This document shows, piece by piece, positions 17,688 through 52,105 of a DNA stretch of 64,000 nucleotides. The position numbers and the translations under genes are program-made. The stretch is from a virus (Duplodnaviria > Caudoviricetes). The stretch spans positions 18,938-82,937 of IMG/VR virus record IMGVR_UViG_2870609773_000001; one strand, 5' to 3'. How positions within the stretch are numbered: position 1 is the stretch's first letter; the number at the start of each line of letters is the position of its first letter. Below the pieces are notes generated by a model that was not told the DNA's origin, ran no database searches, and was given only the letters and a program-made list of their open reading frames with translations.

Positions 17688-19259
17688 TCAATAGGAACTG
17701 ATCTCGAACGCGTCCAACTCGTCGTCCAACTCGTCCGCCTCGACGATCAGATCTCCGGCGAGGATCGGGGCGAGCAGCATCCGGTTGATCGCCTGGGTGC
17801 AAGCGTCAACCTGGTCATCGTGTGATCCGTTCGGGAACGCGGCGTGCTCGTCCCGGAAGCTGCCGACCCACGGGCACAGTTCCGGGGCCGGCAGGTAGAC
17901 GGATCCGGCCTCGATGAACGGGGTGACCGCGCGAGCGCGAGCCTCCTTGCTGCCGTCCGGCTCGACCGGAACCAGGCCGGGCACCTGGCGGCGCAGCGAG
18001 TTGATGACCGCGGTGCCGTTTGCCTTGTCCTCGACGAGTTTGAGCGTGGCCTGGGGCCACTTCGCTGCCATCTCCCGAAGGGCGGCACACGTCGCGGTGA
18101 AGGACAGCCGTTCGTGCACTTGGTCCAGCAGGAACAGTTCGAGGCCGTACCGCGCCCACACCTGACCCACAACGTAGTCGGAGCCGTCCGTGTCCTTGAA
18201 CGCCATGTCCCACGACATGGCGACCTCGTCAGCGCCTGGCGCCCAGCAGGAGCCGTCAGGGCGTTCGATCCACCGCGGCGATGTGTACTCCCGCCACCAG
18301 TCGCGCTGGAATATGTCGCCAGCGGCAGGTGTCGGCCGTCCCTGGTAGAGGGCCGCCCACACTCGGGAGCCGACAGCGACGCGCGTCTGTCTCCACTGTT
18401 CGAGGCTTCGACCACGGGCCGACACCATGAACTCGCCCGGCTCGCGGCCGAGCGGGTCGGTCTCGCCCTTATTCGGGTCGTGGTCAGCTTGCGCCGGGAT
18501 GTTGAGGACCTTCCACCGATGGGCGTCTTCAGCGGCGAGGACCTTGCCGGCCAGGTCCTCTTCGTGCCAGCGCGTCAAGATGATGACCACTGGCGCACCT
18601 GGAGCGAGCCGGGTGTTCGCTACCGCCTGCCAGAACGACCAGACGACCTCGCGCCACGCCTTACTGTCGGCGTCCCGCATGTCCTTGATCGGGTCGTCGA
18701 TGTAGAGCATTTCGGCTGGCTTGCCGGTCAGGCCGGACGTGATTCCGACACTACGGACGCCGCCGCGGTGGCCGTCGATACGCCAGCGGCGAGCGGCGCC
18801 GTTGTCAGGGGCGATGCGCAGTCCGAGATCCAGCGTGTCGTCGGTGCCGTCGTTCGAGATGATGTGGTTGCGGATGTTCCGCCCGAACTCGTCGGCGAGG
18901 TCTTGGGCGTAGCAGGCGATCGCGATCCGCAGGTCTGGGTTGCGGGTGAGCATCCACAGCGGGCCGATCGTCGTGACGCGGGTGGACTTGCCCTCCTGTG
19001 GCGGCATCGTGATGATGAGCCGATCGCAGCGGCCTTCGGCCACCTCGATGAGTGCCTGATCGATGAGGGTCAGGGCCGGTGTTTGGATGGTCGTCGGTTC
19101 GATCGCTGCAGCGAGGTGCCCTGGCGTCTCCCACTGCGGCCTTGTGGTGACCTTGCGTTTGCGGGCGGCGGTGCGGAGTGTCTTCAGCAGCCGCTCCTGC
19201 GCAGGGAGCGGCCATGTCCGCCAGTCGGGCGGCAGCGTGGCGAGCGTGGTCATGCTCAC
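17688..19259 (-). CDS. terL: Terminase large subunit
   Basis: MPPQEGKS Walker A, LYIDDP Walker B, SWDMAFK and HDDQVDACTQA nuclease motifs. Confidence 0.95.
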   Translation of the reverse strand: MSMTTLATLPPDWRTWPLPAQERLLKTLRTAARKRKVTTRPQWETPGHLAAAIEPTTIQTPALTLIDQALIEVAEGRCDRLIITMPPQEGKSTRVTTIGPLWMLTRNPDLRIAIACYAQDLADEFGRNIRNHIISNDGTDDTLDLGLRIAPDNGAARRWRIDGHRGGVRSVGITSGLTGKPAEMLYIDDPIKDMRDADSKAWREVVWSFWQAVANTRLAPGAPVVIILTRWHEEDLAGKVLAAEDAHRWKVLNIPAQADHDPNKGETDPLGREPGEFMVSARGRSLEQWRQTRVAVGSRVWAALYQGRPTPAAGDIFQRDWWREYTSPRWIERPDGSCWAPGADEVAMSWDMAFKDTDGSDYVVGQVWARYGLELFLLDQVHERLSFTATCAALREMAAKWPQATLKLVEDKANGTAVINSLRRQVPGLVPVEPDGSKEARARAVTPFIEAGSVYLPAPELCPWVGSFRDEHAAFPNGSHDDQVDACTQAINRMLLAPILAGDLIVEADELDDELDAFEISSY

Positions 19260-47900: not shown

Positions 47901-48338
47901 CTACGCCACCGCCTGCTCAGCCGCGCGCCTGCGCTTGCTGGCCTCGATGGTGCATCCACGGCACCACGGGTTGAGCCCATCTCTCTGCTTGGCGTCCTTG
48001 GTGAACGCCGCCACCGGCTGCACAACCCCGCAGCGGGTGCACGTCTTCTCCACCACCAGCGCAGGCTTCGGAGGAGGAGGAAGAGCGGCGCGTCTGTCTG
48101 CCTCCCGCGCCCTCTGGACAGGGTTGAGTCCGCCCCAGACGCCTTCGCGCTCGTTCCGGGCCAGCGCGTACTCCAGGCAGTCCGCCTGCACCTGGCAAGG
48201 GCCACAGACGCGCTTCGCCTTGACCTCCCGCCACTTCCGCTGCCCTTCGCGCTCGCCATCGGCGGGGAAGAACAGCCGTGGGTCCGCATCGCGGCAAGCC
48301 GCACGGTCCGTCCAGTCGCTAGTGATCCGCTCAGGCAT
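47901..48338 (-). CDS. whiB: WhiB-family regulator with C-terminal Zn finger
   Basis: WTDRAACRDADPRLFFP...AKRVCGPCQVQADCLEYAL...GVWGG. Confidence 0.92.
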   Translation of the reverse strand: MPERITSDWTDRAACRDADPRLFFPADGEREGQRKWREVKAKRVCGPCQVQADCLEYALARNEREGVWGGLNPVQRAREADRRAALPPPPKPALVVEKTCTRCGVVQPVAAFTKDAKQRDGLNPWCRGCTIEASKRRRAAEQAVA

Positions 48339-48489
48339 GCGGGGTCTCCTCCTCTTCGTTTCTTGTGGGGTCGCCGGCCAGGTTGCGGGCGATCTCTGCC
48401 ATGCGTCGGAGACGGGCAGCAGCCTCAGGAGAAGCTGCAGGGTCAGCAGCAGCGCGCTCCAGACAGGAGATGTGAGGGTCACGGCGCAT
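48331..48489 (-). CDS. Small hypothetical protein
   Basis: Coupled between MTase and WhiB. Confidence 0.4.
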   Translation of the reverse strand: MRRDPHISCLERAAADPAASPEAAARLRRMAEIARNLAGDPTRNEEEETPHA

Positions 48490-50281
48490 CGGACACCCCC
48501 GAGAACAGGTCGAGAGTGGGCTGGAGAGGCTTCGACAGCCGGGCCTTGATGAGTTCCGCATGCTTCAGATCCAGCTCGATCAGCACCGACTGGAAGCCCT
48601 CCAAGACGCACGCCTCCCCCGTGGTGCCACTTCCGGCGAACGGGTCGAGGACGACACCGCCGGGCCTGGTCACGAGGCGGACAAGAAACCTCATCAATGA
48701 GAGCGGCTTCACCGTTGCGTGCGCGGTCCCGTCGTTGAGCTTGGGCCGCTCGGATGACGGGGCCTTGGCCTCGTAGCGAAAGACCGGGAAGAACCTGCTT
48801 GCCCCTCCACCCGCATCGCCCACCCATCCCCCCCGGCGGCCTTTGGCACCGTGGTAGCCCATGCCGTTGCCCTTCTCGGCGCGGGAGTTGCTGGGTGTCC
48901 AGCCACTCTGCCGGTCGAGTTCGGCGACGGGGCAGTCCGGCTGGCACGGTCCGTCCTCGACACACAGGGCGCTGTGTGAGAACACCAGGTTTGTCGGCCA
49001 GCGGCCCTCAGGAGCACCACCGCGCACGCCGGGCAGCGGGGCGAAGTCTGTACTGCCCTTGTCGGTGTAGCGGCGGTTGGCAGATGCTTCTCCATTTCGC
49101 GACCGCTCAACATGCCCTGCCGTATCCTTTAGGTATGCCTTGGAAGGATCAGCAGGGATACGTCCGCATGTGGCACAACGGGCGTGACACTCGGCAGCAT
49201 CGAGTTGTGGCTGAGGAGATGCTTGGACGTCCCCTTCTGCCGACAGAGCACGTGCATCATCGCAATGGGGTGAAGGACGACAATCGGCCAGAGAATCTGG
49301 AAGTTGTTGACTCTCGGACTCACATTGTTGAGCACTGGCAGGGCGGGCACTACGAGCCCCAGGTGAAGGCGCAGACGAAGCCTGACGCTGCTTGCTCCGA
49401 CTGTGGATGGTTCGGCCATCTGAGAGCGAAGGGCATGTGCAGCCGGTGCTATCACCGCCACTACTTCCGCCGGAACCGGGCTGCCGGACGCGCGTAGCGT
49501 CGATGTTGAGAGCGCCCGTGCCGTGCTCCAGCACGTTGGCCGCCACAGTGCCGTTGAGCGGCTTGCGGCACAGCCACCAGTGCTCCTGGCCGGGTTTGAG
49601 GGCTGTGCCCCAGCCCTCCCAGCGGGCGGCGTCGCCAGTGGCGGCGGCGGTCACGGCGTACGTGCCACCCTTGATGCCGGACGGGCCAAGCTGCTGCATC
49701 CCCGCCGTGGTGCCCGACATGCCTTGTCCGACAACGACGCGCTCCAGCCGCCCCCAATCCTCGACGGACAGGTGGCTTTTGAACCGCGCCCACCAGGCGT
49801 CGCCGGGCGAGTGCTCGGCCTTGGTCCAGTCGTGCAGGCTGTTGCCTGGCACGTCGAGTCCCAGGTTGATGGCGGCGAGAACGTAGTCCCGGCGGGCGAG
49901 CTTGTCGATCGCCGCGCTCACGTCGAGCGATTTCGGGAAGCCGCTGCCGAAAATGTGGACCACGCAGTCACGAATTTCCAGGCCAGCGTCATCCAAGGCA
50001 GTCGCGGTCCAGTGGGAGGTGCGCGGCAGCGCCCACACGAGCGCGTGACCGCCGGGCTTGAGCACCCTCCTCACCTCGGACATGACCTCGGTCAGCCACT
50101 TCACCCACAGATCGCGACCGCCCTTGTCGGCGTCCCACGTCTTGCCCATGAAGGAGATCCCGGCGGGAGGGTCGGTGACGACGGCGTCGACGCTCGCGTC
50201 CGGCATCTCGCGAAGGACGTCGAGGCAGTCGCCGAGGTACAGGGAGACGGTGTCGTCGCTCCAGTACGGGTCAAGAGGCAT
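48479..50281 (-). CDS. Beta-class N6-adenine/N4-cytosine DNA methyltransferase with ~120-aa in-frame insertion
   Basis: GDCLDVL, VVTDPPA (motif IV variant), HATVKPLSLM, VVLDPFAGSGTTG; non-MTase-like residues ~262-383. Confidence 0.9.
   Translation of the reverse strand: MPLDPYWSDDTVSLYLGDCLDVLREMPDASVDAVVTDPPAGISFMGKTWDADKGGRDLWVKWLTEVMSEVRRVLKPGGHALVWALPRTSHWTATALDDAGLEIRDCVVHIFGSGFPKSLDVSAAIDKLARRDYVLAAINLGLDVPGNSLHDWTKAEHSPGDAWWARFKSHLSVEDWGRLERVVVGQGMSGTTAGMQQLGPSGIKGGTYAVTAAATGDAARWEGWGTALKPGQEHWWLCRKPLNGTVAANVLEHGTGALNIDATRVRQPGSGGSSGGDSTGCTCPSLSDGRTIHSRSKQRQASSAPSPGARSARPASAQQCESESQQLPDSLADCRPSPHCDDARALSAEGDVQASPQPQLDAAECHARCATCGRIPADPSKAYLKDTAGHVERSRNGEASANRRYTDKGSTDFAPLPGVRGGAPEGRWPTNLVFSHSALCVEDGPCQPDCPVAELDRQSGWTPSNSRAEKGNGMGYHGAKGRRGGWVGDAGGGASRFFPVFRYEAKAPSSERPKLNDGTAHATVKPLSLMRFLVRLVTRPGGVVLDPFAGSGTTGEACVLEGFQSVLIELDLKHAELIKARLSKPLQPTLDLFSGVSDAP
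49135..49497 (+). CDS. HNH homing-type endonuclease nested antisense within the MTase
   Basis: GYVRMW...QHRVVAEEMLGRPL..TEHVHHRNGVKDDNRPENLEV..SRTH..EH (HNH_3-type) plus CSDC...CSRC; TATCCT 6 nt before ATG. Confidence 0.85.
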   Translation: MPWKDQQGYVRMWHNGRDTRQHRVVAEEMLGRPLLPTEHVHHRNGVKDDNRPENLEVVDSRTHIVEHWQGGHYEPQVKAQTKPDAACSDCGWFGHLRAKGMCSRCYHRHYFRRNRAAGRA

Positions 50282-50409
50282 CGGTGTTCGCCTCCGTTCC
50301 GAGTTGTTCCGGAGCGTTCCGAAACGGTCCGAGAGTGTCCGGAGACGTGCAGGACGGGGCCCAGCAGCGGGCAGGAGCGTCCGTGCAGACCTCGCGGTCG
50401 ATCAGGCAG

Positions 50410-50920: not shown

Positions 50921-52105
50921 TCATGAGCACACCTCCGCGACGCGCCTGCTCATCCATCCGGCGGCGGTCACCGGGACGGCGTTGCCGATCAGCCGGTTCT
51001 TCTCGGTGCCGGTTCCGCGCAACGGGTGGTCGTCGTCGAACCCCTGGGCTCGGGCCTTCTCCCGGATGGACAGCATCCGCAGCCCGGAGTCGTCCACCGT
51101 CGCGGCCGGCTCGATGTAGGCGAAGTGGTTGCCCTCTGCGGTGATCGTCCCCAACGGCTCGTCCATGCCCAGGACGGTGCAGTTGCGGCGCAGAACGACG
51201 ATGAACGGGGCGCCGCCGAACCGGCGCAGCCCGATCTCGACCTTGCGCCTGGTCTCCTCCGCGTACGGGACGAACTTGTGGACGTACTTGCCGTCACCGA
51301 TCCTGCGCGTCGGCAACCCGGGTTCGAGCACGTCTGCGAGGGGGCGTGCGGTCGGCGTGACCGGCAGGTGCCCGCACCGCCGGTTCGGGCAGACGAACAC
51401 GGCGCTCTGCCCACCGTGAACGATCTTCCGCGCGTGCGGCTTCGCCCACCGCTGCAACGCCACCACCGGCCCGCACACCCGGCACTCCGCGGGTGGACGG
51501 ACACGCAGGTCCGGCTGCCGCTTCAACCTCTTGTGCGTGAAGCAAAACAGCAACCGGCGGCGATGCTGAGGCACCCCCGGGAACCCCGGGTCGGCCAGGA
51601 ACGCGGCATCGGCGTCAACGATCTGGATGTGGTAGTCCAGGGCCGCCCACATGCGCAGCCACGGATCGAACAGCCTCCACGTCGTGGCGAACCTCGGGAC
51701 GTTCTCCCCGCACACCACGTCGTAGTCGTGCACCTCCGCAGCCCTCAACAGGTCGTAGGCGGTCATCCGCGTCAACGACCAGTCCGTCTTGCCCTCCTGT
51801 CCAGGCGAGGGTTGAACGGTGAGCTCCGTCTGCGCCTTCTCCGCCCGGTTGCTCCCGGCCGGCGACACCTCCTTGCAGATCGGCGAACCGACCAAAACCC
51901 TGGTTCGAGGCAGCGAACGGAAGTCCAGCTTGGTGATGTCGGCCTGGCGGGTATCGCACGAGGGGAATGCCGCCCGCAGCGTCTCCACCGCTGGCGTGAC
52001 GTGGTTTACGGCCACAGCCACGCCGAAGCCGCTGCCGTCGAAGCCGCACGCGTCTCCACCTCCGCCGGCGAACAGGTGGGTGGAGGTCAGCAAACGCTCA
52101 GTCAT
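50921..52105 (-). CDS. C5-cytosine DNA methyltransferase
   Basis: HLFAGGGG (motif I), GSPIC (motif IV), GENV (VI), QHRRRL (VIII), RAQGF and IGNAVPV (IX/X). Confidence 0.92.
   Translation of the reverse strand: MTERLLTSTHLFAGGGGDACGFDGSGFGVAVAVNHVTPAVETLRAAFPSCDTRQADITKLDFRSLPRTRVLVGSPICKEVSPAGSNRAEKAQTELTVQPSPGQEGKTDWSLTRMTAYDLLRAAEVHDYDVVCGENVPRFATTWRLFDPWLRMWAALDYHIQIVDADAAFLADPGFPGVPQHRRRLLFCFTHKRLKRQPDLRVRPPAECRVCGPVVALQRWAKPHARKIVHGGQSAVFVCPNRRCGHLPVTPTARPLADVLEPGLPTRRIGDGKYVHKFVPYAEETRRKVEIGLRRFGGAPFIVVLRRNCTVLGMDEPLGTITAEGNHFAYIEPAATVDDSGLRMLSIREKARAQGFDDDHPLRGTGTEKNRLIGNAVPVTAAGWMSRRVAEVCS

Follow-up and report, generated by a model that had tools for sequence, protein, structure and literature searches.

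An HNH endonuclease gene nested antisense in a prophage DNA methyltransferase gene: a probable homing element that does without splicing

Introduction

A stretch of 64,000 nucleotides (nt) from a Caudoviricetes virus (IMG/VR record IMGVR_UViG_2870609773_000001, positions 18,938 to 82,937; hereafter the window) carries a minus-strand gene for a β-class N4/N6 DNA methyltransferase (methylase), inside which a complete HNH endonuclease gene is encoded on the opposite strand. How can a nuclease gene lie backwards within a methylase gene whose own reading frame stays open from end to end, and what brought it there? A first-pass annotation, made from the sequence alone, had proposed that both frames are under selection and had offered two explanations. 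According to the first, the nuclease is a homing endonuclease concealed on the strand opposite to its host gene, and the antisense translation of its sequence is tolerated as a loop in the methylase. According to the second, the two genes form a compact restriction-modification or addiction pair.

Here, we report that the methylase frame is free of stops across the nested gene in the window and across whatever HNH sequence is available in every related element that we recovered, and that the closest methylase allele lacks the nested gene altogether. Together with the further evidence presented below, these findings make it very probable that the locus is a splicing-independent homing endonuclease element inserted backwards in the linker of the methylase.

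Results

An HNH gene is nested in an unbroken methylase frame

The methylase frame reads through 600 amino acids (aa) with no stop codon, as the first-pass annotation had stated, and Pfam N6_N4_Mtase (PF01555) was matched at both ends of the product (E 5.7e-26). Wholly within this open reading frame (ORF), on the plus strand, lies the gene for a 120-aa protein (Table 1), previously described as an HNH_3-type nuclease with a CxxC...CxxC tail. That description holds. The protein scored 42.4 bits against Pfam HNH_3 (PF13392), compared with a curated cut-off of 24.8 (E 5.4e-11), and the four cysteines of its C-terminal CxxC...CxxC zinc-finger motif are invariant in a ten-sequence family alignment. 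As expected of a ββα-metal motif with its catalytic His and Asn residues, H41, H42, N44, D49, N50, N54, H63 and H67 are likewise invariant in 10/10 family members. An AlphaFold2 (AF2) model of the HNH protein reached a mean predicted local distance difference test score (pLDDT) of 88.2. Its top match among solved structures was I-HmuI (1u3e; E 3e-3, probability 1.00), with a template modelling score (TM-score) that was modest at 0.47.

Base composition sets the nested gene apart from its surroundings. The guanine-plus-cytosine (GC) content is 0.57–0.59 across 49050–49400 and 0.68–0.73 in the flanks. Counting bears out the abundance of T-ending codons that had been remarked upon earlier: they make up 23% of the codons in the HNH gene, but 8% in the flanking parts of the methylase gene and 6% in the adjacent gene. 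Within the insert, the GC content at HNH codon positions 1, 2 and 3 is 0.69, 0.45 and 0.69, respectively, while that at the third positions of methylase codons (GC3) is 0.44, as against 0.81–0.88 in the methylase flanks. The position-wise GC of the HNH frame and the low methylase GC3 within the insert indicate that the sequence is shaped by the HNH frame.

The two genes are read in an opposite-strand register in which positions 2, 3 and 1' of the HNH codons lie opposite positions 3, 2 and 1 of the methylase codons. In this register, any plus-strand NTT, NTC or NCT codon followed by an A-initial codon would be a methylase stop, a rule that the first-pass annotation had worked out correctly, and no such context is present within the HNH gene. 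The stop codon of the HNH gene, TAG, falls within the methylase codons of the NIDAT motif.

The HNH gene occupies a cassette that is absent from the closest allele

The closest homologue of the window's methylase is a 484-aa protein of Nonomuraea wenchangensis (P0001; L012:6001-7455), which is 80–87% identical and has no insert. In both DNA and protein alignments, the interval from GTGALNI to GRWPTN differs between the window and this empty allele by exactly 363 nt, that is, 121 codons, in frame. The first-pass annotation had placed a block of non-methylase sequence at residues ~262–383; a non-native block does exist, but its true range is ~271–392. The residues that follow (393–425) are native linker of a length that varies among homologues. 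The insertion site is thus the variable linker that joins the NIDxCRV motif of the methylase to its GRWPxN motif, and the HNH ORF covers all but ~29 nt of the insert.

Insert-free alleles are common: a relative of this methylase is present in 831 phage records, and in most of them the gene encodes ~410–450 aa and is without this insert. Megablast of the locus against the phage collection returned no near-identical DNA. A protein search with the methylase-frame text of residues 262–400 against 5.8 billion proteins likewise found nothing, a result that fits unconstrained methylase-frame text and is uninformative on the spread of the element.

A family of antisense elements shares one methylase site

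Searches seeded with the HNH protein are independent of whether the methylase frame is open. They recovered elements with the same site and orientation in mycobacteriophage MKC-IRE-02, in one IMG/VR contig and in at least nine metagenome contigs, and a methylase-based search added one further metagenome contig with an antisense element. With the window's own element included, the family comprises at least 13 elements that share the insertion site, the orientation and the relative frame, the 12 further same-site elements being those among the matches listed. Among the same matches, all HNH relatives that are at least 54% identical over nearly the full length are nested antisense, and no free-standing close HNH relative was found.

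The element of MKC-IRE-02 (PP711298.1) encodes a 122-aa antisense HNH protein that is 69% identical to the window's (L001:2132-2497, minus strand). This gene is unannotated; for that stretch, the deposited annotation names a 'methyltransferase' and nothing else.

The methylase frame is kept free of stop codons

The GC contents of the 13 elements range from 0.44 to 0.66. In 13 of 13, no stop interrupts the methylase frame over the available HNH sequence, and the relative frame is the same each time; five of the elements lie on cut-off contigs, in which the open frame was checked over the HNH sequence present and not over the full methylase ORF. The remaining minus-strand frames over the nested gene have far shorter open stretches in each element, and the four first-found elements have 3–11 stops in each of three other frames.

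We considered whether chance could have left this antisense frame open, without selection, in GC-rich DNA, and used 75 non-nested (free-standing) HNH_3 homologues as an empirical null. The codon-aligned antisense frame is indeed open in 42% of controls with GC >0.64, as a chance explanation would have it. The elements, however, use another antisense frame, which is open in 0/12 of the controls with GC >0.64 and in 2/55 of those with GC ≥0.5, in which it contains 3.3–5 stops per 120 codons. In addition, we fixed the HNH protein and permuted its own synonymous codons: the methylase frame stayed open in 2% of trials for the window gene and in 1.5–70% for the other elements. The product of the per-element probabilities of an open frame, independence being assumed, is 5e-14, or ~4e-12 without two near-duplicates. 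Elements with a GC content of only 0.44–0.52 are open too. Chance is therefore effectively refuted.

In 3 of 20 low-GC (0.3–0.5) HNH homologues classed as 'free-standing' (among L014-L143), the same antisense frame is fully open, which is unexpected at that GC content. These three may sit in reverse orientation inside host genes of other kinds than this methylase.

The two strands are constrained in different ways. Four compared elements differ from one another at about half of their third codon positions, and the at-risk dipeptides are largely different. Of 112 HNH codons, ~24, 24 and 56 show differences at positions 1, 2 and 3, respectively, and amino-acid identity among the four elements is 65–71% for the HNH protein versus 36–46% for the methylase frame. 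This pattern shows purifying selection on the HNH gene. The methylase frame is kept stop-free by selection even though its amino-acid text is poorly conserved. Within the insert, the plus strand is thus constrained for protein sequence and the minus strand essentially only for the absence of stops. In this sense, the suggestion that both frames are under selection has stood up, with purifying substitutions on one side and 13/13 open methylase frames, against 2/55 in controls, on the other.

The insert bears no signature of splicing

A stop-free insert could also be a cryptic spliced element that is removed from the mRNA, by an unrecognised ribozyme or intron, or from the protein, as an atypical intein with an antisense endonuclease. 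The latter has a precedent in reported inteins with an antisense-encoded endonuclease (bioRxiv 10.1101/2025.01.02.630785), and an intein, too, needs an open host frame. An RNA intron needs no stop-free host frame, yet 13/13 elements have one, and a search with Rfam 15 over 48300–50400 on both strands gave no ribozyme match at E up to 1. The Pfam scan of the methylase detected no Hint or intein domain. Moreover, nearly all of the ~122 inserted residues coincide with the HNH ORF and its promoter, which leaves no room for splicing blocks. An intein would have a nucleophile at its junctions and a terminal His-Asn; in the junctions compared, the residues vary and none is visibly conserved, and methylase-frame identity is 36–46%.

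Structure prediction gave a similar picture. In the AF2 model of the methylase, the core has pLDDT values of 85–97, whereas residues 270–422 have values of 28–42 and almost no regular structure; the insert region is thus predicted to be a disordered loop, which also speaks against a splicing domain. We consider hidden splicing of either kind to be highly improbable.

A promoter of its own would serve the HNH gene

Because the HNH gene is on the opposite strand, the methylase mRNA is unusable for its expression and a promoter of its own is required. The TATCCT hexamer that the first-pass annotation had read as a −10 element is indeed present 6 nt before the ATG (Table 1), and of the 12 elements whose start is clear, 11 have a TAnnn(T/A) hexamer exactly 6 nt 5' of the ATG. 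A perfect TTGACT-17-TATAAT is found at the homologous place in three low-GC members, two of which are near-duplicates, and in one member a short leader, which contains a G-rich ribosome-binding site, comes after the promoter instead. This conserved arrangement supports a dedicated promoter that would give a leaderless HNH mRNA. The convergent HNH promoter might also tune methylase expression.

An 8-bp inverted repeat was also observed, with CTCAACAT at 49106–49113 and its complement at 49503–49510; the promoter spacer repeats, in inverted form, the methylase LNI codons from the far end of the insert. The repeat scores 9–10/10 in four high-GC members only; in the seven others that were tested, it fell short of significance. 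A terminal inverted repeat was consequently rejected as a feature of the family, being confined to these four members, and is not used as evidence here. The repeat could be a target-mimicking operator or a relic of the original insertion. I-TevI offers a precedent for autoregulation through an operator, and by analogy the inverted copy of the LNI codons could serve as an operator for autoregulation in the high-GC subgroup.

Flanking sequences suggest transfer between divergent methylases

Along the gene, the window and the empty allele share a nucleotide identity of 0.72–1.0, with the exception of four blocks: residues 261–272 (0.47), residues 393–404 (0.50), a loop at residues 465–496 and an isolated block at residues 521–532 (0.56). 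The first two of these flank the cassette. Compared with an invaded metagenomic allele (L011), by contrast, the window is 0.86 identical at residues 261–272 and 0.64 at residues 393–404, and ~0.5–0.7 identical elsewhere. These ~12 codons on either side are the only ones in which the window is more like L011 than like the close empty allele. Such flank mosaicism, here in a single three-way comparison, is the pattern expected of co-conversion during homing. The cassette and its short flank tracts have moved between divergent methylases that are only ~50% identical. Within the upstream flank tract, the NIDxCRV block carries a Cys-to-Thr change, and the resulting codon pair holds the stop codon of the HNH gene. 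More broadly, one conserved methylase site shows presence/absence polymorphism across divergent hosts, with empty alleles on the one hand and 13 invaded alleles on the other.

These observations bear directly on the restriction-modification or addiction pair, in which a restriction-like or toxic HNH nuclease and a methylase that protects the phage genome would act as one module. The nuclease and the methylase are physically inseparable, a second (C5) methylase is encoded next door, and the close HNH relatives, among the matches listed, are all inside methylases of this family, as one might expect of a module. The partners have no mutual need, however, as the closest allele and most methylases of the family are without the HNH gene, and the cassette has moved with its flank tracts between methylases that are ~50% identical. 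Furthermore, the HNH protein is of the I-HmuI/HNH_3-like homing-nuclease type, and the gene always occupies one site within its host gene, which is typical of homing. We therefore set aside this second proposal of the first-pass annotation as very unlikely.

The window is a prophage in an actinomycete genome (12.9 Mb in two contigs) that contains one copy of the HNH gene and one of the methylase gene. A single copy without an empty target, and 23% T-ending HNH codons that are unadapted to the genome, would both suit a domesticated or decaying relic. On such an account, the HNH protein no longer homes, the open frame results only from selection acting on the methylase once an ancient insertion had become fixed, and the HNH gene might have been co-opted for another phage function or its antisense promoter might regulate the methylase. 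Against this stand the HNH ORF and its catalytic set, which are intact in all ten aligned elements, and the strongly purifying character of the substitutions. The sporadic distribution and the existence of an empty allele at 80–87% identity are also at odds with an old, fixed insertion, and the flank mosaicism argues for recent transfer. We judge a relic to be correspondingly improbable.

By comparison, the empty allele, the co-conversion-like flanks, the conserved promoter geometry and the predicted disorder of the loop all support the antisense homing endonuclease that had been proposed at the outset.

The host methylase and its surroundings

Motif IV of the methylase reads DPPA rather than the canonical DPPY/F throughout the actinomycete-prophage clade (consensus of 60 sequences), empty alleles included, so that the stacking aromatic residue is absent. 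As the whole clade has DPPA, together with the empty alleles, it is a conserved clade trait and no sign of decay after invasion. The possibility that the window's methylase is dead through private decay of motif IV was rejected for this reason.

At residues 465–496 (48794–48889), the nucleotide identity to the close empty allele drops to 0.36–0.47, as compared with 0.75–1.0 around it, and this segment is also predicted to be disordered. A compensated frameshift was considered here and rejected, because no alternative frame matches the empty allele; the segment is a variable loop, which may evolve fast or may represent a further recombination patch.

Downstream of the methylase gene is a WhiB-family gene (47901–48455, minus strand), and the C5 cytosine methylase gene lies upstream (50921–52105, minus strand). 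This gene order matches that of the Nonomuraea wenchangensis prophage with the empty allele (L012).

Other insertions in related methylases

Several related methylases carry insertions of other kinds. Kersh gp68 (L003:1504-3480) and Mantra gp64 (L008:760-3084) have an in-frame LAGLIDADG_1 domain (E ~1e-15) inserted near the methylase N-terminus, and Pfam detected no Hint domain. The inserted domain probably corresponds to the 'second homing endonuclease' described by Gosselin et al. 2023. In the Starcevich methylase (L007; 1014 aa), an intein-like block is also present. In L087:682-3177, a DPPAG-type methylase, an out-of-frame same-strand HNH is located directly before motif I. A low-complexity, stop-free insert of ~190 aa follows GRWPxN in P0069, and an N-terminal insert of the same character, ~280 aa long, is found in the minus-strand ORF 1878-5069 of L013. 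The low-complexity inserts of L087, P0069 and L013 may hide further nested genes.

Table 1 Features of the methylase locus (positions in the window)
Feature	Position	Strand	Description
Host methyltransferase gene	48479–50281	minus	Unbroken 600-aa ORF, no stop; β-class N4/N6, PF01555
Methylase motif IV	50159–50173	minus	DPPAG, residues 37–41
Methylase motif I	48626–48640	minus	FAGSG
Inserted cassette	~49106–49471		~366 nt; methylase residues 271–392; absent from closest allele
HNH endonuclease gene	ATG 49135 to TAG 49495–49497	plus	120 aa, HNH_3/I-HmuI-like, wholly inside methylase ORF
−10-like hexamer	49123–49128	plus	TATCCT; 6 nt before HNH ATG, leaderless-transcript geometry
−35-like hexamer	49099–49104	plus	GCGACC; 18 nt upstream of −10; aligned by eye, position homologous to low-GC TTGACT
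Upstream flank tract	49472–49501	minus	Residues 261–270; moves with cassette; identity 0.47 (empty) vs 0.86 (L011) in block 261–272
Downstream flank tract	49070–49105	minus	Residues 393–404; moves with cassette; overlaps HNH −35 region; identity 0.50 (empty) vs 0.64 (L011)

Discussion

Based on these findings, we propose a plausible route by which the element persists and spreads. First, the HNH gene's own promoter would drive its transcription, antisense to the methylase gene. The HNH protein would then nick or cut insert-free alleles in co-resident phage or prophage genomes, and recombinational repair would copy the cassette in, along with ~10–12 flanking codons on each side. Translation of the methylase would continue through the cassette, which would form a disordered surface loop of ~122 aa, and the enzyme would stay functional. 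If the methylase is translated through and still functional, the cost to the host would be low, and neither an intron nor an intein would be needed.

Several points weigh against this proposal. The expression of both products, the activity of the nuclease and the function of the methylase with its loop are what we infer rather than observe. With a single HNH copy and a single methylase copy, the genome offers no target, and the element may be quiescent here. The multiplied probabilities of an open frame overstate independence, because the elements share ancestry, although, as noted above, four of them differ at about half of their third codon positions and largely in their at-risk dipeptides. 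In the window, the −35 hexamer is weak, with 3/6 bases matching the consensus, and a generic scan of the window for sigma-70 promoters and terminators found no site at its threshold; for this reason, the promoter argument rests on conservation among relatives. Finally, with DPPA at motif IV, methylase activity cannot be assumed from textbook motifs, although this change is clade-wide and not specific to invaded alleles. Even so, a splicing-independent homing element remains by far the most probable explanation in our assessment.

Looking beyond this locus, we think it likely that antisense 'stealth' homing elements constitute a widespread, unpublished class, defined by a self-promoted leaderless HNH gene, by selection on both strands as coding sequence and by homing without splicing. 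Such elements would represent a third route for selfish nucleases, which settle inside a coding gene with neither intron nor intein by ridding the host frame of stops; the route would be open even to a nuclease gene on the opposite strand, which has to bring its own promoter. They also expose an annotation gap, as gene finders currently miss such HNH genes (e.g., that of PP711298.1). Dual-strand coding down to 44% GC provides a natural test case both for gene finders and for studies of overlapping-gene evolution, and a linker that seems to accept an insertion of more than 120 aa would be a permissive engineering site in this methylase family.

Comparison with known systems

Free-standing homing endonucleases such as T4 SegF and cyanophage F-CphI carry out 'intronless homing': they are mobile without a self-splicing carrier, and flanking markers are co-converted. 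Such free-standing homing genes sit between host genes, whereas the window's HNH gene lies inside a coding sequence and is dual-coded.

The window's HNH protein shares the Pfam HNH_3 domain with I-HmuI of Bacillus phage SPO1 (PDB 1u3e), and the insert-free host allele is presumed to be its target, as in that system. I-HmuI, however, is a 174-aa protein encoded within a self-splicing intron of group I on the strand of the host gene. The window's protein has 120 aa and a CxxC...CxxC tail, and its homing-type activity is putative.

Antisense-encoded homing endonucleases of the LAGLIDADG or Vsr-like type have been described in actinobacteriophage inteins (bioRxiv 10.1101/2025.01.02.630785). As in the window, the endonuclease ORF runs opposite to a host ORF that stays open. 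Those inteins are bona fide splicing domains, however, whereas the window's element has no Hint domain or splicing block, and its nuclease is an HNH protein.

The closest parallel is the ShiLan domain, a stop-free insert that hides an out-of-frame, same-strand HNH gene in mycobacteriophage DNA methylases (Gosselin et al. 2023, PMC9957025; Arsenault, Gosselin & Gogarten 2025, PMC11855218). The two systems have in common a PF01555 phage methylase as host, a nuclease of the HNH superfamily, a host frame without stops and no signature of an intron or intein. In both, in-frame translation of the insert is predicted to be unstructured, the distribution is patchy in a way that suggests horizontal spread, and leaderless initiation has been proposed. 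The core of the window's HNH protein (residues 6–67) is 55–56% identical to the HNH proteins inside the Bipolar and ShiLan-type methylases. In our searches, same-strand HNH inserts were found again in Bipolar, Starcevich, Mantra and a cyanophage, with read-through in 20/22 of the same-strand cases examined. Since the same-strand form was published in 2025 (PMC11855218), the novelty implied by the first-pass annotation was too high.

The antisense arrangement nonetheless differs from ShiLan in several respects. The opposite-strand case is not mentioned in the ShiLan paper (PMC11855218), and we found no paper on a splicing-free antisense form in the literature searched, in which antisense endonucleases are reported only inside true inteins. 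Unlike ShiLan, the window's HNH gene is encoded on the opposite strand and has its own conserved, putative promoter. The insertion sites are also distinct: ShiLan lies before ARKPL (ALKP.../ARKPL), with a duplicated flank at query residues ~225–245, and the window's element lies downstream, in the NIDxCRV/GRWPxN linker. Its host is a Nonomuraea-type actinomycete prophage and not a mycobacteriophage, and the family reaches low-GC environmental phages. The window's element thus belongs with the hidden-HNH insertions, as a self-promoted variant that lies on the opposite strand and occupies a new site.

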